Source of the DNA: an uncultured Gammaproteobacteria bacterium
Lineage (GTDB): Bacteria > Patescibacteriota > Microgenomatia > UBA12405
Length of the DNA stretch: 53,639 nt
Assembly: GCA_964516665.1 (NCBI GenBank)
Contig: CAZEXG010000002.1
Span: 1 to 53,639, forward strand
Direction of reading: 5' to 3'
Below the pieces are notes generated by a model, which saw nothing but the letters and a program-made list of their open reading frames with translations, was not told the origin of the DNA and searched no databases. Below, piece by piece: positions 1,327 through 37,571 of this stretch. Position 1 is the stretch's first letter. Every line of letters begins with the position of its first letter. The position numbers and the translations under genes were made by a program.

Positions 1327-1331
1327 AAAGC

Positions 1332-1340
1332 TGATACAAT
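1332..1340 (+). promoter_or_regulatory. Extended -10 promoter element TGATACAAT, 9 nt upstream of the PAP2 gene ATG
   Basis: TG-n-TACAAT read at 1332-1340 in the 23-nt divergent intergenic region. ATG at 1350. Confidence 0.4.
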
Positions 1341-1349
1341 TATCTCATT

Positions 1350-1925: not shown

Positions 1926-1929
1926 TTTT

Positions 1930-4511: not shown

Positions 4512-4527
4512 GGCATAATCTAAATCA

Positions 4528-6426: not shown

Positions 6427-6439
6427 TATATAAATAATT

Positions 6440-7492: not shown

Positions 7493-7493
7493 A

Positions 7494-7522
7494 TTGACAT
7501 TTTAGGTTAATAAATTTACTAT
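7494..7522 (+). promoter_or_regulatory. Sigma70-like promoter TTGACA-N17-TACTAT, 7 nt upstream of ATG 7530
   Basis: TTGACA at 7494-7499, a 17-nt spacer, TACTAT at 7517-7522. No SD between the -10 and the ATG. Confidence 0.5.
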
Positions 7523-7529
7523 AAGATCA

Positions 7530-9230: not shown

Positions 9231-9251
9231 TTTTTTGTCGTAAAATACACT

Positions 9252-9554
9252 ATGTCTGATTCTGTGATTACTGATGCTGTTTTTCAACATACCGCCAAAC
9301 TTTCTCGTCTCGAAATCAAACCCGAAGAAAGCTATATCAAAGACCAGCTTTCCCAGGCGGCTGAATATGTCGAAGTGTTAAAGGAATTAAATACGGATAA
9401 TGTTTTACCTACTTATCAGGTAAATCACAAAAAAAATGTTCTTCGCTCTGACGAAGTTCAGGCTTCCTTACCTCAAGATTTAGCCTTATCTCAGGCAGAA
9501 AAAACCAGTAATGGCTATTTTCAAACTGCCGCCACTATCGACAAAAATAAATAA
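9252..9554 (+). CDS. gatC: Asp/Glu-tRNA amidotransferase subunit C
   Basis: 100 aa, directly upstream of gatA with a 1-nt gap. Typical GatC start ....HTAKLSRLEI..EE. Confidence 0.85.
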   Translation: MSDSVITDAVFQHTAKLSRLEIKPEESYIKDQLSQAAEYVEVLKELNTDNVLPTYQVNHKKNVLRSDEVQASLPQDLALSQAEKTSNGYFQTAATIDKNK

Positions 9555-9555
9555 T

Positions 9556-10950
9556 ATGACTCTAAATCAATTAACTCTCAAAGAAGCCCGTGATGGTCTA
9601 AAAGCCAAGAAATTTTCTGCCGCCGAACTGGTTAAAGCTTGTTTTGACCAGATTAAAAAGGTCGACTCAAAACTAAATTGTTTCGTCACTAAATGTGAGA
9701 CAGAAGCCCTAAAACAGGCCGAAACTGCCGATATTTCTCTGCCACTTGGTGGCATTCCTATTGCCATTAAAGATAATTTTTTAACTACAGGTATTAAAAC
9801 CACCGCCTCCTCCAAATTATTGGACAATTATGTTGCTCAATACAATGCCACTACTATCGAAAAGATTAAAAGTGCCGGAGCCATCATTATTGGTAAAACC
9901 AATATGGACGCTTGGGCTCATGGTTCCAGTACTGAAACTTCCGACTACGGTCCCACTTTAAATCCTTGGAACATCGAACATCTTCCTGGTGGTTCCAGTG
10001 GTGGTTCTACTGCTGCCATTGCCGCCGATGAAAGCATTATCGCCACCGGTTCTGAAACAGCCGGTTCCATTCGTCAGCCTGCTTCCTGGTGTGGTGTCGT
10101 TGGCTTTAAACCCACCTATGGTCGCGTTTCTCGTTATGGCGTTATCGCCATGAAATCATCAACCGATTCTCCGGGACCAATTGCTAAAACAGTTGATGAT
10201 GCCGCTGATCTTTTGGAGATTATGTCCGGTTACGATCCTCACGACGCCACTTCTATTGACGATACCTCATGGAAAAAACCTGAGTTAAGGCCAAATTTGA
10301 ACGGTCTCAAAATTGGTTTGCCCGCTTCTTATTTCCCTTCCCAAACTCAAACAGAAGTTAAAAATGCCGTTTTAGCTGCCGCCGATACTCTCAAAAAACT
10401 TGGTGCTGAAATCATCGAATTGCCCGATGTTTTAGATCCAAAATACTCTATTGCTGTTTACACCATTCTCCAGCGTTCCGAAGTTTCCAGTAACCTTGCC
10501 CGTTTTGACGGTGTTCGCTATGGTCACGATCGTTCCTATTTCGGTACCGAGGCCAAGCGTCGCATTATGTTGGGAACCTATTCACTTTCGGCTGGTTATT
10601 ATGATGCTTATTATTTAAAAGCACAGAAAGTTCGCACCCTTATTTGTCAGGATTTTGACAAACAATTTCAAAAAGTTGACGCTATTATCGGTCCCGTTTC
10701 TCCCAGCACCGCTCTAAAAATCGGCGCCTCTGAAGGCCAGGCTATGTTTGGTGAAATTCAGGATATGTTAGTTGAACCTTCAAGTATTGCCGGTTTACCG
10801 GGAATTTCTCTTCCTTGCGGCTTTGACAAAATTGGTCTTCCCATTGGTCTTCAAATTATGGCTCCTCAAAAACGTGAAGATCTTGTCTACCAAATCGCCA
10901 AATTATTTGAAGATAATACCGAATATCATTTACAAAGACCAAAACTATGA
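9556..10950 (+). CDS. gatA: Asp/Glu-tRNA amidotransferase subunit A
   Basis: Amidase signature GGSSGGSTAAIA...GSETAGSIRQPAS. I place the start at ATG 9556 (MTLNQLTLKEARDGL), just after the gatC stop, rather than the track start at 9511. Confidence 0.95.
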   Translation: MTLNQLTLKEARDGLKAKKFSAAELVKACFDQIKKVDSKLNCFVTKCETEALKQAETADISLPLGGIPIAIKDNFLTTGIKTTASSKLLDNYVAQYNATTIEKIKSAGAIIIGKTNMDAWAHGSSTETSDYGPTLNPWNIEHLPGGSSGGSTAAIAADESIIATGSETAGSIRQPASWCGVVGFKPTYGRVSRYGVIAMKSSTDSPGPIAKTVDDAADLLEIMSGYDPHDATSIDDTSWKKPELRPNLNGLKIGLPASYFPSQTQTEVKNAVLAAADTLKKLGAEIIELPDVLDPKYSIAVYTILQRSEVSSNLARFDGVRYGHDRSYFGTEAKRRIMLGTYSLSAGYYDAYYLKAQKVRTLICQDFDKQFQKVDAIIGPVSPSTALKIGASEGQAMFGEIQDMLVEPSSIAGLPGISLPCGFDKIGLPIGLQIMAPQKREDLVYQIAKLFEDNTEYHLQRPKL

Positions 10951-11513
10951 GCAACGTTATTGTCGTCTTAGGTACAGGTATCAAGGAAGATGGTTCTTTG
11001 CCGGCAAGCAGTATCGCCTGTGTTAAAAAAGCAGTTGAACTTCAAAAAGAAAATAAAGTTTTTAAAATTTTATTTTCTGGGAAATGGGCTTGGAATTTGA
11101 ATTACCAACCACCTATTACTGAAGCTAAAGCCATGGAAAAACTGGCCAAAGAATACGGCGCCACCTATATCTCCATTGGTGAAGAAGGGCAAACCACAGT
11201 CCACAACCTATGTTGGGTAAAAATGAGATATTTAAAATGGCACAATTATTTTTCACCAATTTTTATCATAGCTTCACCCATTCTTAAAGATCGATTTGAA
11301 TACAATGTAAAAATGGTTCTCGGTCCAGAGTATCATTACCAAATTATTTGTGCCGATTCCGACTATCCTAAAGAAAAAATTGATCAGCTCAAAGAATTGG
11401 AAAAACAAAAACTGCAAGACTGTATTAAATTTTATGAAGGAATTGTTCCTGGAGACGATCAAAAAATTTATGAATTGTCTCTGAAGGATCTTAAAGAAAA
11501 TTATCAAAAATAA
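10947..11513 (+). CDS. DUF218 / YdcF-family protein
   Basis: 188 aa. N-terminus VIVVLGTGIKEDGSLPASSIACVKKAVEL fits the DUF218 pattern. ATGA overlap with the gatA stop, and 1 nt before the gatB ATG. Confidence 0.65.
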   Translation: MSNVIVVLGTGIKEDGSLPASSIACVKKAVELQKENKVFKILFSGKWAWNLNYQPPITEAKAMEKLAKEYGATYISIGEEGQTTVHNLCWVKMRYLKWHNYFSPIFIIASPILKDRFEYNVKMVLGPEYHYQIICADSDYPKEKIDQLKELEKQKLQDCIKFYEGIVPGDDQKIYELSLKDLKENYQK

Positions 11514-11514
11514 T

Positions 11515-12924
11515 ATGACTACCACTCCCATCATCGGCCTTGAAGTCCATGTTGAACTAAAAACCAAATCAAAAATGTTTTGCGGCTGTAGCGCCGATCA
11601 TTTTCATGTCGAGCCCAACACTCACACTTGTCCTGTCTGTCTCGGTCTCCCTGGCGCCCTGCCGGTTCCCAATCAAAGTGCCTGTGAATGGTGTATCAAA
11701 TTAGGTCTGGCTTTAGGCTGTTCTATTAACGAAGAAACTTTTTTTGAGCGCAAAAATTATTTTTATCCCGACCTTGCCAAGGGCTATCAGATTACTCAAC
11801 TTCAAAAACCTTTTGCTATTAATGGTCATCTAAACATTGATGGTCACGACATCCGCATCAACCGCGCTCACATGGAAGAAGATACTGGTAAATCAGTTCA
11901 TATTGATGCTTCTACTTTATTAGATTTCAACCGTTCTGGCGTCCCTTTGGTTGAAATTGTTTCCGAACCTGATATTCAATCTGCTGAAGAAGCTAAAAAA
12001 TATCTAAACAAATTACAACAAATTATCCGTTATATCGGTATTTCTGATGCTGATATTGAAAAAGGTTCTATGCGCTGTGAACCGACTGTCAATGTCAAAA
12101 TCGAAGATGAATCCGGTACTTATTACACCCCTCTTGCTGAAATCAAAAATGTCGCTTCCTTAACCGGCGTCATGAATGCCATTAATTTCGAAATTAAACG
12201 TCAAATTGATCAGTATCAATCTGACAAAATTGTCAAAAATTCTACTAATAAAACCACTCGCGGTTGGGACGCTGACAAAAATCACACTTTCTTACAACGG
12301 GAAAAAGAGGGGAGTGCCGACTATCGTTATTTCCCAGAGCCCGACATTCCTCCTATAACTTTTACTCCTGATCAAATTGAATCTATTCGGACCACCATTC
12401 CTGAGCTTCCCGACGCCAAAATTGCCAAATATAAATCTCTTGGCCTTTCCGACTACGACGCCAATCTTTTATCCGAGACCAAAGAATCTGCCGCTATTTT
12501 TGATAAAATTATTGCCCTCGACAACTCCGCTGAATTTGCCAAATTCTCGGCTAATTTATTGATTGGTCCCTTAAAAACAATTGATACTGATATCGATAAG
12601 ATCAATCCTGATCATTTCAAAAAATTATTTGATAATAAATCTCAACTTTCTTCCACAGCTATTAAGCAATTAATTCTGGATGCCTGCCAAAGTGGTTCTG
12701 ATCCACTCATTCTCGCCCAAGAACAGCATCTTTTTCAGGTCTCAGATACTGCCGCCATAGAAGAAATTGCCAAAAAAGTTCTAGCTGACAATCCCAAGGC
12801 AGTTGCTGACTATCAAAAGAATCCCATGTCTATTGGCTTTTTAGTTGGCCAGGTGATGAAAGCCTCTCAAGGTTCAGCCAACCCCCAACTTGCTCGGGAA
12901 ATTTTGGAAAAACTGCTCAAATAA
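11515..12924 (+). CDS. gatB: Asp/Glu-tRNA amidotransferase subunit B
   Basis: 469 aa. IGLEVHVELKT.SKMFCGC, CPVCLGLPGALP, NRAHMEEDTGK, C-terminal GatB/YqeY domain. Confidence 0.95.
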   Translation: MTTTPIIGLEVHVELKTKSKMFCGCSADHFHVEPNTHTCPVCLGLPGALPVPNQSACEWCIKLGLALGCSINEETFFERKNYFYPDLAKGYQITQLQKPFAINGHLNIDGHDIRINRAHMEEDTGKSVHIDASTLLDFNRSGVPLVEIVSEPDIQSAEEAKKYLNKLQQIIRYIGISDADIEKGSMRCEPTVNVKIEDESGTYYTPLAEIKNVASLTGVMNAINFEIKRQIDQYQSDKIVKNSTNKTTRGWDADKNHTFLQREKEGSADYRYFPEPDIPPITFTPDQIESIRTTIPELPDAKIAKYKSLGLSDYDANLLSETKESAAIFDKIIALDNSAEFAKFSANLLIGPLKTIDTDIDKINPDHFKKLFDNKSQLSSTAIKQLILDACQSGSDPLILAQEQHLFQVSDTAAIEEIAKKVLADNPKAVADYQKNPMSIGFLVGQVMKASQGSANPQLAREILEKLLK

Positions 12925-15093: not shown

Positions 15094-18000
15094 ATGCCAG
15101 TGTCTACCTTTAGTCTAGAGTATCAAAAATTAAATTCCGAACAAAAACTAGCTGTCGATACTATTGAAGGTCCGGTGATGGTTATTGCCGGCGCCGGTAC
15201 TGGAAAAACTCAAACTATTGCCCTTAGAATTGGCAAAATTCTTGAAGAAACCCAAGTTAATCCCAGCAATATTCTCTGTTTAACCTTTACTGAAAATGCT
15301 GCCCTTAATATGAGGGAAAGGCTTCTCAATCTCATTGGCCCCGCCTCTTATTCCGTTCGCATTGCTACCTTTCATGGCTTCTGTAATTCCATTATTAAAG
15401 ATCATCCGGAATATTTCCTTAATTCTGCCCTCGAATCGGAAGCTATTGATGATGTCACTCAAATTGAAATTATCCGTTCTTTAATCGATAAACTTCCTAC
15501 CTCCTCTCCGCTAAAAAATCTGAATTTTACTTATTTTTACCAAAAAGATATTATCTCCTCTCTTTCCACCCTCAAAAAAGAGGACATCACTCCTTCCCGT
15601 TTTTTGGAATTAATCACTTACGCTGCCGATTTTGTATCTCTTGCCATTCCTTTTTCCGAAAAACTCAGCACTATCCGGGCTACTCCCAAAGCCTCGGCTG
15701 AAATTGTTGCTCTAATTTCCGATTTATCCGCCGAGCCTAAATTAAATTCTCTTTATCAAGTCCGTCTTAAATATTTTCTCCAACTTTATCAATCCGAAGC
15801 TCTTAGCCTCTCTGAATTAAAGAAAAATATCAGGGACTTTATCGACAACACCAGTAATAATTTACCCAAACTCAAGGACCTATCTACTATTTATCAATCC
15901 TATCAACAAAGTCTTTTAGACCGGGCTTTATATGACTACGAGGATATGATTCTCTGGGTAATTGCCGCTCTCCAACAACATCCCGAACTCTTAACCCAAT
16001 ATCAAGAACTCTATCAATATCTCCTGGTTGATGAATTTCAGGATACCAATTCTGCTCAAATGGAAATCCTTAATCTTCTTACCCAAAAACAGGACAAGCC
16101 CAATCTTTTTGTTGTCGGCGATGATGACCAGTCTATTTACCGTTTTCAGGGTGCCTCTGTCGAAAACGTTTATACCTTTTATCAAAAATACGAACACGAT
16201 ATTAAATTAATTGTTTTAAAAAACAACTACCGCAGCCACCAGCTAATTTTAGACTCATCGGAAAATGTCATCAGTCATAACCAAAGCCGAATTACCCAAT
16301 ATATCGGCCATTTAGATAAATCATTAAAATCGATTTCCACTTATGATCCTGATCCGATAAATCTTTTTGCCGCTAATTCACAAACTGAAGAAAATTATTG
16401 GATTGTTCAAAAAATTAAAAAATTGGTTGATTCCGGCACTTCTCCTAATAGTATTGCTGTTCTCTACCGCAACAACGCTGACATCAATGATCTTTTGCCC
16501 TACCTTTCCCAAAATGCTCTTCGTTATCTCCGCTCCGACGCTGTCAATATTCTCGACACCTTGGAAATCCAGCAACTTTTAACCCTTCTAAAATACCTGG
16601 CTAATCCTACCGATGACACCCTTCTTTTTCATCTTCTATCCTTTAATTTTATTAACTTTAAGCCCTTAAATCTTTATCAACTTTTCGCTCTTGCCCACAA
16701 AAAACATCTATCCCTTTCTGAACTGATTTCTGATCAGGACACTCTTATCCAAAATAACTTCTCTCCTAAATTTATCAGGCGTCTACGCAATTTCACTCTC
16801 CGTGTCGCCAAAGTTCAAAAGAAAAATCAAAATCTTCCTGCCGATAAATTGTTTGATTATATTATCCGCAAATTTAATTATCTGCCTTATCTTCTCGAAA
16901 GTCGGGACCTTTCTCTTCTCCAGCAACTTAACACCCTTTATTCCCACCTCAAACAATCGCTTAGTGTCGACAAAACCGATCTTTTTACTTGGGTCAAAAA
17001 ACTGGATTTACTTTTCGAAAACAACATTCCTCTCAACTCTTCTCCTCTCCAAAGCGAATTGGAATCTTCTCTTCGTCTCATGACTGTTCACAAGGCCAAA
17101 GGTTTAGAATTCGACCATGTTTTTCTGATTAAAGTTTTATCCGGAAAATGGGATAATTCTTCTTCACGTTCCCTGATTAAATTACCTCTAGGCATTCTTC
17201 GCTACGATATCGCCCTCTCGGATAATCTCGAGGAAGAACGTCGCCTTTTTTACGTCGCCTTAACTCGGGCCAAAAAACAGCTTTACCTTTCCTATTCCCG
17301 TTTCAATGACTCCCGTCGCGAGCAACTTGCTTCCCAATTTATCAGTGAAATTAATCCTCAACTTTTAGAAAAAATTAATTCCGATTCAGAGATAGAAGCT
17401 TCGGCCCTCAAGACTCTTTTTTCTCCTGCCATTCCCAAACTTCAGTCTCCTGATTTAAGCTCTTATCTTCAGAATTATCTTTCCACCCGCTATCGCTTTA
17501 ACATTACTCACCTCAACTCTTACCTCAAATGTCCTCTTTGTTTTTTCTTTAAAACAATTCTCCATTTACCCTATCCTAAGAGTAAATCACTTTCATTTGG
17601 AACCAGTATCCATGGAGCTTTGGCCTATCTCACTGAAGTTTATAAACAGGAAAAACATCTTATTCCTTTGGAAAAATTCATCTATATTTTTGATCAAAAT
17701 CTCAAACGGGAAAATCTTTCCTCAAATGATTACCAAGATTTGCTCCAACACGGTCATCAAGTTTTAACCGACTATTATTCCCATTATCAATCCGACTTTA
17801 ATGGCAATTGTCTCACTGAACACGATTTCAAATTTTATAATGTCCGCCTTAACGATATTCCTCTCACCGGTAAAATCGACAAGATTGAATTTTTATCCGG
17901 AAATACCATTAATGTTGTCGATTACAAAACGGGTAAACCTGATTCCAAATATCAACAACTTGGTCCGGAAGGGGATTATTTCCGCCAACTTGTTTTCTAT

Positions 18001-18249
18001 AAATTACTTTGTTCCGAGGCCAAAGGCTTCCCTTATGAAGTTGTTTCCGGCACCATCGATTTTATTGAAAAAAATAATAAAAATTTATATGTCCGCAAAA
18101 ATTATTCCCTAACCAACGATGATGTTGATAAATTAAAACAACAAATTGCTGAAGTTTTTTCCAAAATCAAATCTCTCGACTTCACCCCCAATCCCAAATG
18201 CGAAGATAAAGACCACCTCCATTACTTATTCGACAAATATTTTAAGTAA
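15094..18249 (+). CDS. UvrD-family helicase fused to a C-terminal PD-(D/E)XK (RecB/AddA-like) nuclease domain
   Basis: 1051 aa. AGAGTGKT, DEFQDTN, VGDDDQSIYRFQGA, NYRS, TVHKAKGLEFDHVF, YVALTRAK. The C-terminal domain then has ...GKIDKIEF....VVDYKTGKP...YFRQLVFYKLL. Confidence 0.85.
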   Translation: MPVSTFSLEYQKLNSEQKLAVDTIEGPVMVIAGAGTGKTQTIALRIGKILEETQVNPSNILCLTFTENAALNMRERLLNLIGPASYSVRIATFHGFCNSIIKDHPEYFLNSALESEAIDDVTQIEIIRSLIDKLPTSSPLKNLNFTYFYQKDIISSLSTLKKEDITPSRFLELITYAADFVSLAIPFSEKLSTIRATPKASAEIVALISDLSAEPKLNSLYQVRLKYFLQLYQSEALSLSELKKNIRDFIDNTSNNLPKLKDLSTIYQSYQQSLLDRALYDYEDMILWVIAALQQHPELLTQYQELYQYLLVDEFQDTNSAQMEILNLLTQKQDKPNLFVVGDDDQSIYRFQGASVENVYTFYQKYEHDIKLIVLKNNYRSHQLILDSSENVISHNQSRITQYIGHLDKSLKSISTYDPDPINLFAANSQTEENYWIVQKIKKLVDSGTSPNSIAVLYRNNADINDLLPYLSQNALRYLRSDAVNILDTLEIQQLLTLLKYLANPTDDTLLFHLLSFNFINFKPLNLYQLFALAHKKHLSLSELISDQDTLIQNNFSPKFIRRLRNFTLRVAKVQKKNQNLPADKLFDYIIRKFNYLPYLLESRDLSLLQQLNTLYSHLKQSLSVDKTDLFTWVKKLDLLFENNIPLNSSPLQSELESSLRLMTVHKAKGLEFDHVFLIKVLSGKWDNSSSRSLIKLPLGILRYDIALSDNLEEERRLFYVALTRAKKQLYLSYSRFNDSRREQLASQFISEINPQLLEKINSDSEIEASALKTLFSPAIPKLQSPDLSSYLQNYLSTRYRFNITHLNSYLKCPLCFFFKTILHLPYPKSKSLSFGTSIHGALAYLTEVYKQEKHLIPLEKFIYIFDQNLKRENLSSNDYQDLLQHGHQVLTDYYSHYQSDFNGNCLTEHDFKFYNVRLNDIPLTGKIDKIEFLSGNTINVVDYKTGKPDSKYQQLGPEGDYFRQLVFYKLLCSEAKGFPYEVVSGTIDFIEKNNKNLYVRKNYSLTNDDVDKLKQQIAEVFSKIKSLDFTPNPKCEDKDHLHYLFDKYFK

Positions 18250-24020: not shown

Positions 24021-24881
24021 ATGAAACACGATTATTACGAAACTTTGGGTGTCAGTAAAGGTGCTTCGAAAGAGGAGATCAAATCCGCCTACCGCAAAAA
24101 GGCCCTAGAATGGCACCCAGATCGTAATAAATCTCCCGATGCTGAGGAAAAATTTAAAGAAATTAACGAAGCTTACGAAATCCTCAGTAATGAACAAAAG
24201 AAAAGTGCCTACGATCAATTTGGCCATGCCGCTTTTGATCCTAACGCCGGCGGCTTTGGTGGCCATACTTACACCCAGCAAAATGGCCCCTTTAACTTTA
24301 CCTGGCAATCTTCCAATGGTGGTCAGGGTGCTGATTTTGATTTTGGCGGTTTTTCCAATCCTTTTGACATTTTTGAACAATTTTTTGGCGGTGCCGGTTC
24401 TTTTAATTTTGGGGCTCAATCTCGTCGTCAGCTTCCAACTTATAAAATTAGCCTTAGCTTTTTAGATGCCGCCCTAGGTTGTGAAAAAGAAGTCGACATT
24501 GATGGTCACCGCCAAAAAATCAAAATTCCCGCCGGGGTTGACGATGGTCAGAGGATCAAATTTACCAATTTTTATCTCTATATCGACGTTCAACCTGATA
24601 AAACCTTTAAACGTGATGGCAATGATGTCTATCTTATTCAAAATATTTCCTTAACTCAGGCAATTTTAGGTGATGTCATTGAAGTTCCTACCTTAGATGG
24701 AAAATTAAAAGTTCGGGTTAAATCGGGCACTCAACCCAACACTCTTGTTCGTCTTCGTGGCCAGGGTATCAAAGATGTTACCGGTTACGGCCGTGGTGAT
24801 TTTTATATTCGTCTTAATGTTGTCATTCCCTCCCGCCTTTCTCTTAAACAAAAACAATTGATCAAAGAATTGGGATTATAA
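24021..24881 (+). CDS. dnaJ: DnaJ-family co-chaperone lacking the Cys-rich zinc-finger domain (class B / CbpA-like architecture)
   Basis: J domain (DYYETLGV...[13 protein letters not shown]), a G/F-rich region, then directly the beta-sandwich C-terminal domains. No CxxCxGxG repeats. Start placed at ATG 24021 (MKHDYY). Confidence 0.85.
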
Positions 24882-25346
24882 AACCCTCTTCCCTCTCCCG
24901 ATAAATCGTGATCGGGCATTCTCCCTTGAAAAGGGAGAAAATACTAACTCATTTTCTCGATCTTTAATTATTATTAATAATTCCCTAAAGATTTCATCGA
25001 TTTCATTTAAAACCTGTGCATTTGTGAATCTAACTGTTTTTATGCCTCTAACTTCCATATACCAATCACGATTTTTATCTTGCCAATACTTTTTATCATG
25101 AGAATCCCCATCAATTTCAATTGCTAATAATAATTTAGAACAATAAAAATCAAGAATATATTTTCCTATTGGTTTTTGTCTTAAAAATTTTTGTTTGATT
25201 TTTCGATTTTTTAATATCATTTTCCACATTTTATATTCGCCATCAGTTGGATTTTTCCGGTTATTTCTCGATAGAATTCTTAATTCTTCTAAATATTTAA
25301 TATTTTTTCTTTGAGTTCTAACTTCAACTGGAGTAATATATTTCAC
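24876..25346 (-). CDS. DUF559 (Vsr-like) endonuclease-domain protein
   Basis: 156 aa. ...[31 protein letters not shown]...[17 protein letters not shown] fits the DUF559 pattern. Overlaps the dnaJ 3' end by 6 nt, convergently. Confidence 0.8.
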
Positions 25347-29388: not shown

Positions 29389-31611
29389 ATGGCTAAAAAT
29401 TCTTGCGACATTGTTATTGGTGATAAAAAAATTACCTTATCTACGGGTCAATTAGCTCCACAAGCTAATGCTTCTGTTCTGGTCCAAATGGGTAAAACTG
29501 TGGTTTTGGCTACGGTTGTTTTAGGCGCTGTTGATAAAAGCAAGGATTATTTTCCTCTTTCGGTTGAATTTGTCGACAAACTTTACGCCGGCGGTTTAAT
29601 CAAAGGTGGTAAATGGATCAAGCGTGAAGGTGCTCCTTCAGATACTGCTATCCTTTTTGGCCGTATTATTGACCGTTCTATCCGTCCTCTTTTTCCTGCT
29701 GATTTTAAAAACGAGGTCCAGGTTATCGCTACCGTTTTAAGCAACGACAAGAATAATGATGTGGTTATTCCCGCATTTACCGCTGTTTCTGCTGCTTTAA
29801 TGCTTTCCGATATTCCTTTTAATGGTCCAGTTTCAGCCATCAGATTGGGCTTGGAAAACGGTAAAATTACCCTATTTCCCACCATTTCTGATCAATTAAA
29901 ATCCTCTCTTGATCTTTTAGTTTGTAAAGATCCTAAAGGTATCAATATGATCGAAGCTGACGCTAATATTGTTGATAACGACACCATTCTCCAGGCCATG
30001 AAACTTGGCTTTGAGACCGGCGAATCAATCAATCAGCAGCTCAGTGATTTTGCCCAAAAATACGGTAAAAAGAAAATTGAATATTTGCCTTTAACTCCTT
30101 CCCAGGAACTTTTAAGTGAAGTCGAGACTCTGATTAAAGATGACATTGCCCAATTTTTGGCTACCGGCGCCGATGGTGCCCATATTGCCGCTGAAGAAAT
30201 CATTAAAGATAAGGTCAAAACTGCCTACGAAGCTAAAATAGAATCAAAAGAAGTTGAAGAAAACCTTTTAATCGAAGCTGTCGATATTTTGATTCGCAAG
30301 TATTTCCGTCAATATACTCTGGCAGGTACCCGCTACGACAAAAGAGCCTTTGATGAAATCAGACCTCTTTCTGCTGAAGTTGGACTTTTACCCTGCACCC
30401 ATGGTTCCGCTCTTTTTCAACGCGGTCTAACCCAAGCTTTAACTATAACCACCCTTGGCTCCCTGGCAGAACAACAATATCTTCAGGATAGTAACGGTGA
30501 AGTAACCAAGCGCTATATTCACTACTATTCCGCCGCTCCTTTTTCCACCGGTCAAACCGGTCGAGTTGGTCGCCCTGGTCGTCGTGAAGTTGGTCATGGT
30601 GCTTTAGCTGAAAAAGCCTTAGTTCCCGTGATTCCTTCAGTTGAAGATTTTCCTTATACCATCACTTTAACCTCTGAGGTTATGTCTCAAAACGGTTCCT
30701 CTTCTATGGCTTCTACCTGTGGTTCCACCCTGTCTTTAATGGACGCCGGTGTTCCCATTAAAGATAAAGTTGCTGGTATTTCTGTTGGCATGATTTCTGA
30801 TGATTCAGACAAATATGTTTTACTCACCGACATTGCCGGCATCGAAGATCATTGTGGTGACATGGATTTCAAAATCACTGGTACCAGAAATGGTATTACT
30901 GCCATCCAATTGGATATCAAAAGAATGGGTCTTTCCCTTCAAATGATCGCTGACACTTTTGTCGCCTCCACCAAAGCCCGTCTCCAGATTTTAGATAAAA
31001 TTGATTCTGTCCTTTCTGCTCCTCGTGCCGAACTTTCCTCTTACGCTCCCAAGATCAAAATGATCACTCTACCGGAAGATAAAATTGGCGAAGTTATTGG
31101 CTCTGGTGGTAAAACCATCAAAGCTTTAATGGAAAAATACTCTGTCCAAATTGATATCGACGATGATGGTCGTGCTTCAATTTGTGCCATAGATAAGGAT
31201 AAAATAGATGCCTGTGCCGAAGAAATTGAAGCCATGATCAAAGAAGTTCAGGTTGGCGAAGAATACGACGGTGTGGTTACTCGGGTTGAAAATTATGGTG
31301 CCTTTGTCGAATTCCTTCCCGGTCGCGAAGCCTTACTCCACGTTTCTGAAATGAGCGGTGGCTTCCTTTCCGATCCTTCCTCAATTATCAAAATCGGTGA
31401 TCAGATTCACGTCAAAGTTTCTGGTTTCAACGAGAACCATCAAATTAAATTAAGCGCTCCCGAATTTAAAGCAGCCCATCCCGCTCCGCCCGCCGAAGCT
31501 TCAGCGGAGGCAGGGAACCCCCGATTGGGTGGTCGTCCTCAATTCCGAAATTTTGGTTCTGGCTCTCACCGCGCCTCTTTTGGAAACAGAGATAGAAACC
31601 GAGGCAGATAA
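29389..31611 (+). CDS. pnp: Polyribonucleotide nucleotidyltransferase (PNPase) with an Arg/Gly-rich C-terminal tail
   Basis: Two RNase PH domains, a KH domain (GKTIKAL) and an S1 domain (GAFVEFLPGREALLHVSE), then a tail about 46 aa long: ...GNPRLGGRPQFRNFGSGSHRASFGNRDRNRGR. Confidence 0.97.
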   Translation: MAKNSCDIVIGDKKITLSTGQLAPQANASVLVQMGKTVVLATVVLGAVDKSKDYFPLSVEFVDKLYAGGLIKGGKWIKREGAPSDTAILFGRIIDRSIRPLFPADFKNEVQVIATVLSNDKNNDVVIPAFTAVSAALMLSDIPFNGPVSAIRLGLENGKITLFPTISDQLKSSLDLLVCKDPKGINMIEADANIVDNDTILQAMKLGFETGESINQQLSDFAQKYGKKKIEYLPLTPSQELLSEVETLIKDDIAQFLATGADGAHIAAEEIIKDKVKTAYEAKIESKEVEENLLIEAVDILIRKYFRQYTLAGTRYDKRAFDEIRPLSAEVGLLPCTHGSALFQRGLTQALTITTLGSLAEQQYLQDSNGEVTKRYIHYYSAAPFSTGQTGRVGRPGRREVGHGALAEKALVPVIPSVEDFPYTITLTSEVMSQNGSSSMASTCGSTLSLMDAGVPIKDKVAGISVGMISDDSDKYVLLTDIAGIEDHCGDMDFKITGTRNGITAIQLDIKRMGLSLQMIADTFVASTKARLQILDKIDSVLSAPRAELSSYAPKIKMITLPEDKIGEVIGSGGKTIKALMEKYSVQIDIDDDGRASICAIDKDKIDACAEEIEAMIKEVQVGEEYDGVVTRVENYGAFVEFLPGREALLHVSEMSGGFLSDPSSIIKIGDQIHVKVSGFNENHQIKLSAPEFKAAHPAPPAEASAEAGNPRLGGRPQFRNFGSGSHRASFGNRDRNRGR

Positions 31612-31637
31612 TACCCGATAATTGTTTTTATCAACTA

Positions 31638-31670
31638 TTGGCTGCAGCAATGCAGCCAATTTTGTTTTTT
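31638..31670 (+). terminator. Rho-independent terminator of pnp
   Basis: TTGGCTGCA-GCAA-TGCAGCCAA (9-bp stem) followed by TTTTGTTTTTT. Confidence 0.85.
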
Positions 31671-31726
31671 ATTCCCTCGAACCCGTTTTAATATATTTGA
31701 TCTGGGCGCCTAAAGATCTCAATCTT
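31669..31726 (-). repeat. Displaced murA 3'-end fragment (left direct repeat of the insert)
   Basis: The minus-strand reading gives ...RLRSLGAQIKYIKTGSRE-TAA. It matches 33976-34033 at 51 of 58 positions by hand alignment. Confidence 0.8.
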
Positions 31727-31732
31727 AATACT

Positions 31733-31761
31733 TTGATAAAACAAGTAAAAAATACTACAAT
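31733..31761 (+). promoter_or_regulatory. Sigma70-like promoter TTGATA-N17-TACAAT at the left edge of the insert
   Basis: TTGATA at 31733-31738, a 17-nt spacer, TACAAT at 31756-31761, and 11 nt to ATG 31773. Confidence 0.5.
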
Positions 31762-31772
31762 ACACTTGCAAA

Positions 31773-32558
31773 ATGTTTGAAACAGAAAAAATAGATTTTA
31801 GCTTTACCGGAGAGACAAAAATACATTATAGTGATTCTATTGAATGTAGAATTATTAATAATCCAAACAAATATTTAGACACAATTCGAAAAAATAATTT
31901 GATAGCTCAAGCAACCGACATCTTAAAAAGGACAACAAGTTTAAATTTCATTGAAAAATCATCAAATTTAGAAACATACAATTCTCTATTTGGTATTTCA
32001 GATCGAGGAAAGGTACTATGTACTTTTGAGGATAAAACTACTTTAGTAGGTTTTATCTCCATGCAACTATTAAATGACGGCAATTACTATTTTCTTTATG
32101 ACAATTCAACTGTTCTACACCTAAGTTCCGGCCATATTCTTCCAGAATTTCAAGGTAATGACTTTATATATAAAACAATAATTAATTATTCAAATACACT
32201 TGAAAATAAATATGTACCCAAATACATAAGTGGGTACACTCAAAGTCCAAGATTGCTCAGATTAATGAGTTTTTTGATGCACAATAAAATAATCCCTAAC
32301 ATGACAGTTACTGACATTGATTTAGAACAAGGTCAACAGAAAGTTTTAGCCTTAATAGAGGGAAAAAACTATAATGAAAAAATAAAAAATAAATATGTAG
32401 TCATCGGAAAAGCCGGAATAAATATCTATAACTCAAAACTGACAAGCGGAAATCTTGAGTTTGATAATTATTTTTATGAAAAGTTGATGGTTGAGCCAGA
32501 AAAAGGAGATCTTGTCCACTATTTTGGTTTAATCCCAAAAAATTTACACAATAAATAG
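31773..32558 (+). CDS. Hypothetical protein, 261 aa (weak GNAT-like hint only)
   Basis: Intact ORF. ...LHLSSGHILPEFQGNDFIYKTI loosely resembles GNAT motif A. Asn/Lys/Ile-rich composition. Confidence 0.55.
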   Translation: MFETEKIDFSFTGETKIHYSDSIECRIINNPNKYLDTIRKNNLIAQATDILKRTTSLNFIEKSSNLETYNSLFGISDRGKVLCTFEDKTTLVGFISMQLLNDGNYYFLYDNSTVLHLSSGHILPEFQGNDFIYKTIINYSNTLENKYVPKYISGYTQSPRLLRLMSFLMHNKIIPNMTVTDIDLEQGQQKVLALIEGKNYNEKIKNKYVVIGKAGINIYNSKLTSGNLEFDNYFYEKLMVEPEKGDLVHYFGLIPKNLHNK

Positions 32559-33335
32559 ATGATAATTGGCATCAATCAACCATATTATTTACCGTATATA
32601 GGGGTCTTTGAAAGAATGAAGGCATGTGATTATTTTGTTATTAATCCATATACACCAGTAAATAGAAACCGGACAAAAGTTTTTCACCGCAGTGTCAAAA
32701 TTATTCAAACAAATCCTGAAGCAAAATTGGATAGTTTATATATTACTCAGTATGTTTCAAAAAATGATGACTTAGTATTTTATTCAGACATAAAACTCAA
32801 GACAGAATTCTGGGAGCGACAAAAAAATCATATTAAAACAATTTACTTTACGCATAAAAAATCAAAATACTTTTGCTATTTGGAAGAATTACTTAACTTA
32901 ATGAATGATACAAATATTAGTAATTTAGGGGAATACAATATTCGCCTTATAAAACATCTTGCGTTAATTCTGGGTTTAGAAGAAAAAATTATAGACGCTA
33001 GTAAAGACAAACGATTAGCAAAAATTGATTATCGTAAATGTCCAGGTGGTTTCAAAAATAAAAGTACCTATCTTGCTTATTCTATTTGTCATTCCCTAAA
33101 AGGTACAAAGCACATCACTGGTCCAATGGGTCCAAAATGGTTAGACATAAATTTTTTTAAACAGAATAATATAAAAATTAGCTATCAAAACAACAATCTG
33201 CAACCATATAAACAATATTGTCCTAAGAAAAAATTTGTTCCCGCTCTTAGTGTTATTGATTTAATTGCCAATCTTGGACCAAATGCAAGAGATTTCATTG
33301 GTCAAAATTCATCTTATATTGACGATAGTACATAA
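32559..33335 (+). CDS. WbqC-like family protein
   Basis: 258 aa. N-terminus MIIGINQPYYLPYIGVFERMKACDYFVI matches the characteristic WbqC-family start (QP.Y.PY.GYF....D.FV). Starts immediately after the upstream stop. Confidence 0.6.
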   Translation: MIIGINQPYYLPYIGVFERMKACDYFVINPYTPVNRNRTKVFHRSVKIIQTNPEAKLDSLYITQYVSKNDDLVFYSDIKLKTEFWERQKNHIKTIYFTHKKSKYFCYLEELLNLMNDTNISNLGEYNIRLIKHLALILGLEEKIIDASKDKRLAKIDYRKCPGGFKNKSTYLAYSICHSLKGTKHITGPMGPKWLDINFFKQNNIKISYQNNNLQPYKQYCPKKKFVPALSVIDLIANLGPNARDFIGQNSSYIDDST

Positions 33336-33380
33336 ACCGTAAATCTCCGTTTAGTTTACGTTAAAATTAATTAAAAAATA

Positions 33381-33875
33381 ATGCAAAATGGTTCTTTTTT
33401 AATACTATTGAACAAATCCAGAGACAAGGTATTTTTAATACTGAGATCGGATTTTCCAGTTTGGGTGTTAACTGGTGGTGGAATTGAACCAAAAGAAAGC
33501 CCTAAAAGTGCTGCTTTACGTGAAACTTATGAGGAAAGCAAATTTAAAGTAAAATTAATTAAATCTATTGGTTGTTATCGTCAATTAGACCGTCAAAATC
33601 GAGTTATAAAAACGGATCACATATTTGAAGGGCGGATAATTTCTGGAAATTATCAGCCGGAATATGACGGATGCCAAGGCAGATGGTTTCATCTGAATCA
33701 TCTGCCGCCTAATATGATTTTATTCACTAAAAAAATAATTGACGATACCATCAACTCAAAAAAAGTTTTTAATAAATATTATTACCATTCGTTTAGTTTT
33801 GTCGATATAAAACTCTTATTATTAGGTTTTACAAAAGCCTTTCGTTATTTTAAGCAAAAATATTTTATTAGGTAA
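33381..33875 (+). CDS. NUDIX hydrolase
   Basis: 164 aa. Nudix box GGGIEPKESPKSAALRETYEESKF fits GX5EX7REUXEEXGU. Confidence 0.8.
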   Translation: MQNGSFLILLNKSRDKVFLILRSDFPVWVLTGGGIEPKESPKSAALRETYEESKFKVKLIKSIGCYRQLDRQNRVIKTDHIFEGRIISGNYQPEYDGCQGRWFHLNHLPPNMILFTKKIIDDTINSKKVFNKYYYHSFSFVDIKLLLLGFTKAFRYFKQKYFIR

Positions 33876-33975
33876 CTTCTGCACACCCTTCCAGTTTACA
33901 ACTAAATTTTCAGTTAACAGAACGAGTATGAATCAAATTCTTTAGATTAAATTAACTATGCAATTTTTATAAAAA

Positions 33976-34033
33976 CTATTCCCTCGAAGCAGTCTTTATG
34001 TATTTGATCTGGGCACCTAAAGATCTCAATCTT
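33976..34033 (-). repeat. Right direct repeat, which is the functional 3' end of murA
   Basis: Encodes ...RLRSLGAQIKYIKTASRE-TAG. Partner of 31669-31726. Confidence 0.8.
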
Positions 34034-35319
34034 TCGGCTAATTTTTCATAACCTCTCTCAATATATTCCACCCCTTCAATTGTTGATTCTCCTTCCGCTG
34101 TTAGTGCCGCCAAAGTGGTGGTAGCCCCGGCTCTCAAATCGGCTACTTTTAAATTTGCCGCCTTTAATTTGCTAGGCCCGTAAATTTTTACTCCGTGAAA
34201 ATATTCTGCCTTATCGCTTTCCGGGTTAAAGTAGTAATAAGTTGCCGGGTCCTCTACCTCCGGTTGGAAAAATTTAGTTTTTGCTCCCATTTGATTTAAT
34301 AATCCAATATGCTGGAAACGGCTGGGAAAAACTCTTTCTACTACACTGCTCACTCCTACAGCCTGGGTTAAAACCAGACTAAAAACTGCCTGCCAATCAG
34401 TCATAAAACCCGGTTCTGGTTCAGTTTCTATCCCAATTGCTTTTAATGGTTTATTCCAGGAAACAAATACTTCATCTTTTCCCCATTTAGTCTCGGCTCC
34501 CATTTTTTCTACTGTTTTCAAAAAAGTGCCAATAATTTGGGGTTTAATTCTAAGAATACTAATTGATCCTTGGGTACTCAAAGCCGCGCAGGCAAAAGTC
34601 ACCGCTTCATTTCTATCAGAAATTATTTGATGCGAGGCTCCGTGTAGTTCTTTCACTCCTGAAACATAAATTGTGGCTGCATCTTCACTATCTCTTCTGA
34701 TTTTTCCGCCCATTAAATTTAACAATTCAATCAAATCGTCGATTTCCGGTTCGCAGGCCGCATTGTGAATTACAGTTTCTCCTTTTGCTGTTACTGCTGT
34801 CATCAAAATTACTTCTGTGGAAGTGTGCGACGGCTTATTAAAAGTATATTCAGTTCCCACTAAACCGCTTGTTTTTAAAGTGTAAGTACCATTTTCATTC
34901 TGAGTCACTTTGACATTCATTTGTTCTAGGCAGGCAAAAAGTCTATCTAAAGGTCTTTCTCCTAATTTATCTCCTCCAGGCGAGGGGAATGTGATCTCGC
35001 CAGCTCTGGCCAACAGTGGCCCGGTAAAAATAAATGAAGTTCTTGATTTTTCTCCAGCCCCATTAGGAATTTCACATCCTTTAATATTATCTGTTTTTAC
35101 GGTCAAACCATGTTCTCCAAATTCCGCAATTTCTGCTCCTAAACAAGTAGCAATACTTTCCGTTATTCTCACATCCGAAATCTGGGGCATGTTGGTTAGT
35201 TCAACCGTTTCTTTACTCAGCATCGAAGCGATTATTTGTTTGTAACTGGCATTTTTTGCCCCCCTAATAAACACCTCACCGCTAAGTGCCTTACCGCCAT
35301 TGATTATGTACTTTGACAT
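33976..35319 (-). CDS. murA: UDP-N-acetylglucosamine 1-carboxyvinyltransferase (MurA), Asp at the active-site Cys position
   Basis: 447 aa. IRGAKNA, SPGGDKLGERPLD (E. coli has LPGGCTIGARPVD), and conserved C-terminal DLRAGA...AAL.A.G. Confidence 0.95.
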   Translation of the reverse strand: MSKYIINGGKALSGEVFIRGAKNASYKQIIASMLSKETVELTNMPQISDVRITESIATCLGAEIAEFGEHGLTVKTDNIKGCEIPNGAGEKSRTSFIFTGPLLARAGEITFPSPGGDKLGERPLDRLFACLEQMNVKVTQNENGTYTLKTSGLVGTEYTFNKPSHTSTEVILMTAVTAKGETVIHNAACEPEIDDLIELLNLMGGKIRRDSEDAATIYVSGVKELHGASHQIISDRNEAVTFACAALSTQGSISILRIKPQIIGTFLKTVEKMGAETKWGKDEVFVSWNKPLKAIGIETEPEPGFMTDWQAVFSLVLTQAVGVSSVVERVFPSRFQHIGLLNQMGAKTKFFQPEVEDPATYYYFNPESDKAEYFHGVKIYGPSKLKAANLKVADLRAGATTTLAALTAEGESTIEGVEYIERGYEKLAERLRSLGAQIKYIKTASRE

Positions 35320-36446
35320 ATGTAATTATCACTCTACTACAAAATCACTCACTTTGCACCCCTCATCCCGATTTCCTGTATACTTTTTTTGTGGATTCTA
35401 AACTTACTACTAGCGATGCCATTATCAAACTTAGGACCAAGGCCGAAGGTGTCGAATTACCTCCCACCCTTCAGGACAAGCTTAATGAAATTTTCTCAGA
35501 ACTAGAGGTAAATTCTCACTCGGAAGATACCTTTTGGTCCCATTATCAAAGTGCCTCAAAATACCTTGACTGGATTATTTCTTTACCCTGGAATACTCGT
35601 TCCCAGGATATTCTCGACCTTCGTTTTGCCAAAGAAAAACTTGATGAAAATCACTATGGTTTGACCGAAGTTAAAGACCGTATTTTGGAATACATTTCTG
35701 TTTTATCTCTTCAAAAAACCCGTTCTCCCGACATTGTTCCTCGGGCTCCGATTTTACTTTTTGTTGGATTGGTCGGTACCGGTAAAACCACCATGGCCAA
35801 ATCCGTTGCTGATGTCATGGGACGCAAATTAATTCGTATTCCTTTTGGTGGCTTGGGTGATCCCCTTTATCTTCGCGGTCAATCCCGCCTTCATCCCGAA
35901 GCTGAACCTGGTGCTATCATCCGGGCTTTAGCCCAATGTCAAACCAAAAATCCGGTCATTCTTCTCGATGAAATCGATCGTGTCGCCGACGATGCCCTGA
36001 ATACCATTATGGGTGTTTTGGTCGAGCTTCTTGATCCCGAACAGAATTCCCGTTTTACCGATCATTATTTAGATTATCCCTTCGATTTATCCGAGGCTTT
36101 TTTTGTCGCCACCTGCAACAACACCAATCGCATTGCCACTGCTGTTATGGATCGTTTAGAGGTAATTCAAATGCCTTCCTATACTGATGAAGAAAAAATT
36201 GCTATTGGTCGTGATTATATTTTACCCAAAGCTATTAAAGAATCCGGTCTTAACCCTTCGGAACTTAAAATCAGCGATGCTGTTTGGTCCAATATTGTTC
36301 GCCCTCTTGGTTTTGACGCCGGTGTCCGTACTTTGAAAAGAAATATCGAGGGACTCTGTCGCAAAAGTGCCGCCTTAATTCTTACCGGCACTAAACAAAT
36401 TGTTATCGACGAATCGAATGTTAAGAAATTCATTCCCCAATGGTAA
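35313..36446 (+). CDS. Lon-like AAA+ ATPase module without an N-terminal substrate domain or a protease domain
   Basis: LDENHYGLTEVKDRILEYISV, Walker A GLVGTGKTTMAKS, FGGLGDPLYLRGQSR, Walker B ILLDEIDRV, all collinear with the central part of Lon. The ORF ends after the AAA+ lid. The track start (TTG 35313) overlaps the murA start, so GTG 35391 is a plausible alternative. Confidence 0.7.
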   Translation: MTYVIITLLQNHSLCTPHPDFLYTFFVDSKLTTSDAIIKLRTKAEGVELPPTLQDKLNEIFSELEVNSHSEDTFWSHYQSASKYLDWIISLPWNTRSQDILDLRFAKEKLDENHYGLTEVKDRILEYISVLSLQKTRSPDIVPRAPILLFVGLVGTGKTTMAKSVADVMGRKLIRIPFGGLGDPLYLRGQSRLHPEAEPGAIIRALAQCQTKNPVILLDEIDRVADDALNTIMGVLVELLDPEQNSRFTDHYLDYPFDLSEAFFVATCNNTNRIATAVMDRLEVIQMPSYTDEEKIAIGRDYILPKAIKESGLNPSELKISDAVWSNIVRPLGFDAGVRTLKRNIEGLCRKSAALILTGTKQIVIDESNVKKFIPQW

Positions 36447-36721
36447 AGTCCCAAAAAATTGAAAAAATACCTTATTTTTACCTATTTTTGACTGCCACTG
36501 CCTTTGTTGTTTTATTACTTACTCTGTACCCTTATAAACCAGATTTTTCCAAACTTTCCGCCCTTCCCACCCCAACTCCCACTATCTCCAAATATATCTG
36601 TCCCGCCTCTGAATGGGTCGATTGCATGCCCGGTCCTGGTCCGCTTAAAACTCAGTGTCAACCAGATTATTTGAATTGGGCTAAAATTAATTGTTCCAAT
36701 TTTAAGGGCGCTGCCCTTTAA
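36440..36721 (+). CDS. Small membrane-anchored Cys-containing protein
   Basis: 93 aa. One TM segment (YFYLFLTATAFVVLLLTLY), a Pro/Thr linker and 4 Cys in the C-terminal part. Confidence 0.4.
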   Translation: MVKSQKIEKIPYFYLFLTATAFVVLLLTLYPYKPDFSKLSALPTPTPTISKYICPASEWVDCMPGPGPLKTQCQPDYLNWAKINCSNFKGAAL

Positions 36722-36725
36722 TCAT

Positions 36726-37571
36726 ATGAACTTCAAAAAAAAGATTTTTCTTTTTCCTCTATCATTAGCCGTTATTCTTTTCGCTTCCATTATCATTATC
36801 TTTTCTCCCGTTGGTCAAAAGAACATTGTCGATATTTCTGAATATCAACCGCTAGTTATTTCCTCGCCCGATTTTTCCCAACCTCTCAGCAGTCCATTAA
36901 TTATCACTGGGAAAGTCGACCCTTCCTGGGTTTTTGAGGCTTCCTTTCCTCTCGAACTTTTTGATGATCAGGGAAAATCTCTCTTTTTGGGTACTGCTTC
37001 AGCCCCTGATTGGACTGAATCCAATAATGCTTTTATCGGTTTTACTGCTGAAGTTAATTTTTCTACCTCTGCTACTTCCGGTTCTTTGGAATTTAGAAAG
37101 GACAACCCAAGCGGCCTTCCAGAAAACAACCAAAGCTTTAAAATTCCAGTAATCTTTAATTCTCCATCAACCAAATCTCCTTCCAATTTTAAAGTATCCT
37201 CTACCGAGGCAATCGAAAAAGTATCCAAACTACCTGAGGTTGTTACTGAAAGCAAATGTTTAGATTATCCAGGATCAAAAGCTGTCATCAGGGTTGCATT
37301 TGAGCCAAATGATAAAAGTTCTAATTATCAAATATATTTTGAAGAATCACATCCTAATGATGTCAAATTGTTGGCTATATTTTTCGTCGATGCCAATACT
37401 GGTCTTATTACTACACATGACAACAATAAAACAATTAGCTATCAACAGTGGCAACAGTCTCATCAGATCAAAGGATGTAATTTTAAACCGCTACTCTGTG
37501 ATGATGATAATCTTGAATGCCCGCAAGGTTATGCCTGCAGTATATCTGAGGGAACTTGCTTTTTAATATAG
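36726..37571 (+). CDS. Secreted or membrane-anchored protein with a Gmad2-like Ig-fold region and a Cys-rich C-terminus
   Basis: 281 aa with an N-terminal TM or signal segment. SSPLIITGKVDPSWVFEASFPLELFDDQGKSL resembles the Gmad2 immunoglobulin-like domain pattern. The C-terminal 45 aa contain 6 Cys. Confidence 0.45.
   Translation: MNFKKKIFLFPLSLAVILFASIIIIFSPVGQKNIVDISEYQPLVISSPDFSQPLSSPLIITGKVDPSWVFEASFPLELFDDQGKSLFLGTASAPDWTESNNAFIGFTAEVNFSTSATSGSLEFRKDNPSGLPENNQSFKIPVIFNSPSTKSPSNFKVSSTEAIEKVSKLPEVVTESKCLDYPGSKAVIRVAFEPNDKSSNYQIYFEESHPNDVKLLAIFFVDANTGLITTHDNNKTISYQQWQQSHQIKGCNFKPLLCDDDNLECPQGYACSISEGTCFLI

Follow-up and report, generated by a model that had tools for sequence, protein, structure and literature searches.

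An allelic duplicate of the murA end beside an AT-rich gene cassette in a Shapirobacteria genome

How did a short run of AT-rich genes come to lie between two copies of the end of an essential gene? The locus that raises this question is part of a 53.6-kb stretch of DNA (contig CAZEXG010000002.1, positions 1 to 53,639; below, the window) from an uncultured Candidatus Shapirobacteria bacterium, which belongs to the Candidate Phyla Radiation (CPR)/Patescibacteria. Here pnp, which encodes polynucleotide phosphorylase (29389..31611, plus strand; RNase_PH, KH and S1 in precomputed Pfam annotation), and murA, which encodes UDP-N-acetylglucosamine 1-carboxyvinyltransferase (33976..35319, minus strand), form the conserved left and right flanks of a three-gene cassette, and a second, displaced copy of the last murA codons stands between the cassette and pnp. 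Most likely, the cassette entered and was exchanged by ordinary homologous recombination and not as a self-mobile element.

The two copies of the murA end and the DNA between them

Positions 31669-31726 and 33976-34033 form a direct repeat in which 51 of 58 bases are identical, and identity drops off sharply on both sides of it. On one side the repeat is limited exactly by the murA stop codon, and on the other it ends 54 nt into the gene. Barring short matches of low identity and pairs with a shared motif, the window has no other direct repeat of 30 nt or more with copies within 15 kb of each other. The live copy (33976..34033, minus strand) comprises the last 18 murA codons and a TAG stop (...KTASRE) and reads RLRSLGAQIKYIKTASRE up to the stop. 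The displaced copy (31669..31726, minus strand) comprises 18 codons and a TAA stop, reads RLRSLGAQIKYIKTGSRE up to the stop and falls within no open reading frame (ORF) of at least 40 aa. In the murA frame, the reading common to both is RLRSLGAQIKYIKT[A/G]SRE-stop. An imperfect 58-nt repeat of the murA end, each copy with its stop, had been described in a first-pass annotation of this DNA, and the alignment confirms it.

Counted by codon position, the seven differences between the copies number 0, 1 and 6 at first, second and third positions, and their consequence is one Ala/Gly exchange and a TAG in place of a TAA. Six of the seven are silent; seven random substitutions would yield at most one change with a P of about 0.0017. 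The first-pass annotation had counted five synonymous changes besides the Ala/Gly exchange and the exchanged stop, and had read them as the mark of diverged alleles and not of chance similarity, a reading that held. The tails represent two functional alleles of one coding end that have diverged and been shaped by selection. Their longest stretch of perfect identity measures 18 nt and lies at the gene-proximal end of the repeat, where the sequence can be read to hold a short inverted repeat, AAGAT..ATCTT.

MurA itself (447 aa) is intact despite the duplicated end, and its TIGR01072 score of 408.9 exceeds the cut-off (392.7). An xSRE extension is common to both tails; in the other Shapirobacteria MurA proteins examined, the C-terminus is ...IKYIKT or bears another extension. 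Both copies were therefore derived from close relatives. The live tail shows two to four differences from the murA tails of other strains. The displaced tail is the outlier, with seven differences to each, among them the live copy and the tail of strain B, a co-occurring strain described below (7 of 58 positions in either case). It had been supposed at first that the live end was imported and the displaced end original, but this polarity is not shown, considering that it is the live tail that resembles those of the other strains.

The whole layout of pnp, repeat, cargo, repeat and murA was assembled independently from at least six sequencing runs (SRR12487046, SRR29553506, SRR29553507, SRR32380200, SRR32071872 and SRR35580760), with 0-3 single-nucleotide polymorphisms, and shorter contigs from SRR35580765 and SRR35580767 hold parts of it. 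Both junctions are spanned by contigs of SRR29553506 (7.5 kb), SRR29553507, SRR32380200, SRR32071872 and SRR35580760.

The DNA between the two copies has 28.8% G+C, the lowest of the whole window, against 38-44% in the flanks. Windowed G+C thus bears out the AT-rich cargo first suggested by a few hand-counted lines, and the composition of the cargo is foreign. Three tightly packed genes, all on the plus strand, fill the insert. Cargo gene 1 (31773..32558, 261 aa) belongs to a family of ~250-aa proteins, cargo gene 2 (32559..33335, 258 aa) encodes a WbqC-like protein (PF08889, E = 2e-29) with homologues that are 44-58% identical, and cargo gene 3 (33381..33875, 164 aa) encodes a NUDIX hydrolase (PF00293, E = 7e-13). 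A predicted sigma-70-like promoter (31733..31761, plus strand; TTGATA, 17 nt, TACAAT; 10 of 12 consensus matches) stands in the 46 nt that separate the displaced tail from cargo gene 1. At the other end, an AT-rich spacer of 100 nt (33876..33975) leads from the NUDIX stop to the live murA stop, and searches of this spacer gave neither a terminator-like site nor an RNA family. The intrinsic terminator of pnp (31637..31670, plus strand) consists of a stem-loop at 31637-31660, with a 10-bp stem and a 4-nt loop, and a T-tract that runs to 31670 and overlaps the displaced murA stop codon, as the first-pass annotation had it.

Cargo gene 1 had no match in Pfam, NCBIfam, PADLOC or PHROGs, and its family numbers 19 representatives among 1.8 billion proteins. 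In every locus examined, a member of this family lies directly upstream of a WbqC-like gene, and the ORFs in that position on three other contigs (L098, L103 and L111; L numbers are contig labels) are 36-42% identical to cargo gene 1. No close relative of it was found outside this strain, and no donor genome was found. On the cargo, PADLOC gave weak NUDIX matches only and sequence searches of the PDB gave nothing. A structure model of the WbqC-like protein (pLDDT 80) had no significant fold match in the PDB, and a literature search found the term WbqC in no title or abstract. Rfam gave no match at gathering score; a sub-threshold match to an S15 leader inside cargo gene 1 was taken as chance.

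No recombinase domain was found in the three cargo ORFs by Pfam, NCBIfam or PHROGs. The window as a whole was checked by Pfam scans of most long ORFs and, for the rest, by the precomputed Pfam annotation of matching contigs, and no integrase, transposase or site-specific recombinase was found. The lack of such genes inside the insert, remarked on from the start, therefore held, and none was found elsewhere in the 53.6 kb. Neither the cargo gene 1 family nor the tail came up in scans of viral contigs, and BLASTN of the insert against phages and plasmids, a comparison suggested in the first-pass annotation, returned no match.

Elsewhere in the window, two UvrD-type helicase genes (4528-6426 and 15094-18249), the second with a PD-(D/E)XK nuclease domain, like AddA/AddB, contain conserved motif stretches that appear as direct repeats of 66-78 nt about 11 kb apart. 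At 24876-25346, between dnaJ and nusA, a DUF559 (endonuclease-like) gene on the opposite strand interrupts an otherwise co-directional block of housekeeping genes.

A second cassette in the same interval

Two contigs from co-occurring strains, L088 and L085, carry other DNA between pnp and murA, which we call cassette B, the cassette of the window being cassette A. Of the four genes of cassette B (2561 bp, 28.3% G+C), one encodes an M48 peptidase, two encode zinc-ribbon proteins and one encodes a protein of 77 aa. The cassette reaches from the stop codon of pnp to that of murA, and at those two stops homology to the window ends. L088 spans S15, pnp and cassette B, L085 spans cassette B, murA and lon, and the overlap of the two is 99.9% identical. 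No tail repeat was found around cassette B, and the pnp terminator is absent from L088.

The sequences flanking the two cassettes are mosaics. On the pnp side, 482 nt (31099-31580) are identical between the window and L088, on the same contig as cassette B, and the DNA upstream is ~10% diverged. On the murA side, the window and L085 (strain B1) show a single mismatch in 2200 nt from murA to lon (34458-36657), next to 480 nt of murA that are 6% diverged (33977-34457) and DNA that is ~17% diverged beyond 36658. The 36 nt of murA tail on L088 are a hybrid that resembles B only over the final 7 nt and otherwise A. Two such tracts of identity, bounded by 6-17% divergence, are of the kind that homologous recombination leaves in flanking core genes, and they suggest that the whole interval was recently exchanged in this way, by crossovers in the pnp and murA ends. 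A and B contigs from the same samples stop at 34011/34012, and a shared murA contig that is identical to the window starts at 33983; these contig ends are the mark of an assembly-graph bubble, with two arms that share the same murA.

Further along lies a hypervariable patch (36440-37100), which takes in a 93-aa ORF (36440-36721) and the start of a gene for a Gmad2-domain protein (36726-37571). It shows 10-17% differences between strains that are identical over the adjacent 2.2 kb, and a length difference in one contig.

Among more distant relatives, MurA identity peaks at 80-81% in a collection with one genome per species, and a collection of 5.8 billion proteins holds one MurA cluster at 99%, with the next at 81%. 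Synteny around murA is not kept even at 80% MurA identity. At 80 related murA loci, neither pnp nor the Lon-like gene nor the cargo occurs within 8 kb, and a duplicated murA end occurs in none of the 80 other Shapirobacteria murA loci. Exact-protein look-ups with MurA, PNPase, S15, the Lon-like ATPase, cargo gene 1 and the NUDIX hydrolase turned up no empty site, circle junction or second location, and gave only two states of the slot, cassettes A and B. An empty site, in which pnp and its terminator directly face murA, was found neither among the 80 genomes nor among Logan contigs; besides cassette A, the slot was seen only with a different cassette. Considering this, the distance to the nearest other MurA (81%) and the count of related genomes with pnp beside murA (0 of 80), the ancestral order of pnp, terminator and convergent murA that the first-pass annotation had deduced is not shown.

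In one Shapirobacteria metagenome-assembled genome (JAPLYY010000086.1, L001; positions 287-958), a 197-aa ORF of 27% G+C immediately upstream of murA stands between the copies of a 49-nt direct repeat (86% identical), which contains a perfect terminator-like hairpin, GTAGAGACGTTCTGCAGAACGTCTCTAC.

Related cassettes at other loci

The same cassette family occurs beside other genes. Contigs L097-L102 are assemblies of one organism from the European Nucleotide Archive, the Joint Genome Institute (JGI) and NCBI, and their cassette encodes a relative of cargo gene 1, a WbqC-like protein, a small kinase-like protein and a NUDIX hydrolase. On either side of it stands a copy of a 92-96-nt repeat, which represents the last 31 codons and the stop of the upstream 619-aa gene, and in L098 the 21 differences between the copies include only two amino-acid changes (P < 5e-5). 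A third tail copy, of 38 nt, follows the next cassette (AbiEii/AbiEi), beside a convergent rplL. What sets L098 apart from L097 and the other contigs is the final ~50 nt of the middle tail (tail 2) and the cassette after it; a crossover therefore took place inside a tail. Nine differences were counted in tail 2 by alignment, all of them silent as read by eye.

The kinase-like protein of this cassette (195 aa; L097 1051-1638, also on L098 and L100-L102), encoded between the WbqC-like and NUDIX genes, has weak Zeta_toxin/AAA_33 matches. Zeta toxins phosphorylate UDP-GlcNAc, the substrate of MurA, and the link of a zeta-like kinase to a murA-adjacent cassette may be coincidence. The 619-aa Big_2 protein is encoded at L098 3391-5250, and its protein cluster has 56-aa members on contigs of up to 44.8 kb; these members may represent more displaced pieces of tail that were annotated as small ORFs.

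In L111 and L128-L131, a three-gene cassette at the end of an array of ten tRNA genes lies between two complete tRNA-Gln(UUG) genes that are 76-79% identical. Read by eye, the two tRNA-Gln copies show matching base changes on both strands of the acceptor stem. No integrase was found within 10 kb. On L128 the array (2927-3978) ends in tRNA-Gln(UUG), and the second, 76% identical tRNA-Gln follows the cassette at 6337-6408. The low-G+C DNA past this second gene encodes an S26 peptidase/CAP protein and a 354-aa protein on L128 and a GNAT acetyltransferase on L111, which suggests a further variable slot.

The largest duplicates were found on L118 (JGI contig Ga0265292_1000005, 858 kb), where a 10.6-kb array of three cassettes (955-12700) is divided by four partial or complete copies of the locus of a 112-aa coiled-coil gene, with repeats of up to 434 nt that are 75-94% identical. 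The first cassette encodes a methyltransferase, an LD-carboxypeptidase, a decarboxylase and a radical-SAM/SPASM protein, the second a radical-SAM protein and a 274-aa protein, and the third and last a relative of cargo gene 1, a WbqC-like protein and a NUDIX hydrolase. The ORFs of L118 that were scanned included no integrase. In a fourth lineage (L113-L117), the cassette stands downstream of rplL with no dip in G+C and no bracket.

Across the family, the duplicates of flanking sequence are allelic, with mostly silent differences, measure 38-434 nt and sometimes include whole genes or tRNAs, their boundaries vary within one locus, and the cassette may be oriented either way relative to the tail. 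Duplicates of such different lengths, whole-gene copies and opposite orientations therefore fit recombination that depends on the length of homology, not a fixed att core. The ORFs that were examined at the family's five other loci included no integrase.

Homologous recombination and the rival explanations

We put the chances at about even that the murA repeat is a homology-anchored insertion scar in a cassette slot driven by recombination. The pnp-murA interval would then be a variable slot of this Shapirobacteria population, filled by alternative AT-rich cassettes that the host's own homologous recombination would exchange, the crossovers falling in the 3' ends of pnp and murA. DNA from a related strain would bring the cassette, or its ancestor, beside a piece of the end of the same gene, and this donor murA end would serve as the recombination anchor. 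Resolution might follow a Campbell-type single crossover of a circularised fragment or homology-facilitated illegitimate recombination, and a double crossover with an already duplicated tail as second arm would be a further route. Any of these would leave one functional murA end and one displaced, partial allelic copy. With copies on both sides, double crossovers could insert a cassette before the resident end, and could stack or replace cassettes. The 58-nt repeat would accordingly be a recombination scar and possibly a short homology arm, but not the att site of a self-mobile element. We infer recombination of the RecA type, entry by natural transformation and this order of events.

Patescibacteria reportedly retain recombination genes (PMC12455944) and are described as naturally competent (PMC12455944; PMC10187176), the second of these studies, a preprint, reporting competence for a Saccharibacterium. 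In Escherichia coli, circular DNA that integrates by a single crossover leaves 109-950 bp of the anchor duplicated, an outcome commoner than true homology-facilitated illegitimate recombination, and no site-specific recombinase is required (PMC3240628). The murA locus likewise combines foreign DNA and a partial duplication of the anchor, as do L098 and L097. The E. coli experiments used laboratory plasmid substrates, whereas the murA duplication is natural, 58 nt long and allelic.

The slot as a whole also resembles the replacement flexible genomic islands of Alteromonas and other aquatic prokaryotes (PMC4033161, PMC4898812). In closely related strains, such islands hold different gene sets between the same conserved core genes, are exchanged by homologous recombination in their flanks and are low in G+C, with contents that are linked to the cell envelope or of unassigned function. 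At the murA slot, different genes likewise lie between the same core genes, the mosaic tracts of identity are the corresponding signature in the flanks, and the low G+C and the kinds of gene content agree as well. The slot differs from these islands in its size of only 2.3-2.6 kb and 3-4 genes and in two variants, cassettes A and B, that are functionally unrelated where equivalent functions would be expected. It also differs in that one variant carries an allelic duplicate of a flanking gene end. To our knowledge, such a duplicate is not part of the descriptions of replacement islands. In its behaviour the locus is comparable to a replacement flexible genomic island in miniature, one variant of which has a scar like that of one-sided integration. 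A limited literature search found no description of allelic gene-end duplicates that recurrently bracket integrase-free cassettes in Patescibacteria.

Several points weigh against a homology-anchored scar. Perfect identity over 18 nt is short for efficient RecA-mediated exchange, and a perfect block at the gene-proximal end of the repeat is also expected of a site-specific core. Homology-anchored transfer alone does not explain why the cassette family stands beside four different loci, and a recombinase encoded in the genome outside the window may act in trans. The link of cassette B to A-identical murA beyond 30 nt (2.6 kb of identity) is an adjacency in the assembly graph, between the end of L088 and the start of L106, and not one contig. 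Finally, with no donor or empty site found, the founding event and its polarity are not reconstructable.

The most serious rival is that the cassette is a remnant, similar to a cis-mobilisable element (CIME), of an element whose tyrosine recombinase targeted the murA 3' end, with the integrase lost or encoded elsewhere and the two copies as attL and attR. We consider this unlikely, though by no means negligible. The architecture is exactly that of 3'-end integrators, which restore a functional end and displace the other, and like CIMEs and integrative and conjugative elements (ICEs) in protein-gene 3' ends, the locus is a short segment free of recombination or transfer genes, between repeats of the 3' end of a housekeeping gene that stays intact. 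The 18-nt identical block with its short inverted repeat would suit a core, and the related cassette flanked by tRNA-Gln genes sits at a classical target. Nor is the end of an essential protein gene, regarded at first as an exceptional target, unusual: ICESt1 and ICESt3 of Streptococcus thermophilus integrate at the 3' end of fda.

There is also a documented mobile island with imperfect direct repeats and no integrase, the microcin H47 island of E. coli, which is small, has extensive repeats of this kind and recombines in segments of identity between them (PMC3191183). Its repeats are not described as coding ends of a flanking essential gene, unlike the murA tails, and its mobility was shown experimentally, without homologous recombination (PMC3191183), whereas the murA cassette is described here from its sequence.

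Against a CIME-like origin, neither an integrase nor a cognate ICE was found in the insert, in the window or among the ORFs examined in the five other family loci, and the searches turned up no viral, phage or plasmid sequence with the cargo or the tail. The murA repeats are alleles with 12% divergence and not near-identical att cores, and their counterparts vary in length across the family. Crossover at a fixed core does not predict duplicates of 38-434 nt, complete genes or tRNAs with co-adapted acceptor stems, nor nested duplicates bounded differently at one locus (96 nt and 38 nt). An integrase-type reading is further disfavoured because the slot holds an alternative cassette without an att-like repeat in a near-identical local background, and because none of the 80 other Shapirobacteria murA loci has a duplicated end. 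The crossover points between variants, scattered through flanks and tails, suggest that exchange is not confined to one core. The likeness to integrase-driven elements at tRNA and tmRNA genes, drawn in the first-pass annotation, is for the same reasons, above all the repeat-less cassette and the duplicates that include whole genes, not favoured.

Duplication in place, by which a 58-nt target-site or local duplication arose and its displaced copy then drifted, would explain why the direct repeats abut the inserted DNA exactly, but it is very improbable. Six of seven differences are silent and the frame and stop are intact in a non-genic copy (P about 0.002), the same silent bias recurs in L098 (P < 5e-5), and 12% divergence has come without matching decay. 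No transposase was found, terminal inverted repeats are not apparent, and A-type contigs are near-identical between samples, which points to recent spread. The locus does not have the features of a transposon or insertion sequence in any case, considering that no transposase was found, that a repeat search of 30500-35500 gave no terminal inverted repeat, and that its direct repeat is 58 nt long and allelic. It is no integron cassette either, with no integrase in the window and with bounding repeats that are murA coding ends and not imperfect palindromes like attC. A chimeric or collapsed join at ~31.7 or 34.0 kb is practically out of the question: short-read contigs of the population often break at 34011/34012 and 31456, but the co-occurring alternative cassette explains these breaks as a graph bubble, and independent assemblies that span both junctions rule out the artefact that the first-pass annotation had named as a caveat.

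Returning to recombination anchored by homology, we can offer a wider version of it only tentatively, as a possible but doubtful generalisation. Patescibacteria would build and reshuffle cassette arrays without a dedicated recombinase, each cassette travelling with a short allelic end of a neighbouring gene or tRNA as a homology arm of the RecA type. Such arrays, which we likewise regard as somewhat doubtful, would be integron-like but run on homologous recombination, with the murA tail as one instance and L097/L098 and L118 as larger ones.

Accessory-gene acquisition in the tiny genomes of CPR/Patescibacteria is poorly understood; a survey counts more than 100 genomic islands in Patescibacteria, gives no mechanism and never mentions integrases (PMC12455944). 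If the murA insert were a decayed integrative element instead, it would be an ordinary small island with murA as an unusual target. The single locus is modest, and it is the recurrence across unrelated loci that merits systematic follow-up. Together, this locus and the related ones give a testable picture in which small AT-rich cassettes sit at conserved gene ends, between allelic copies of those ends that bear the mark of selection, and are swapped between co-occurring strains. If that picture is general, a scan for direct repeats with mostly silent differences would be an annotation-free way to detect recent gene gain in uncultured genomes, and the same scan could polarise donor and recipient.

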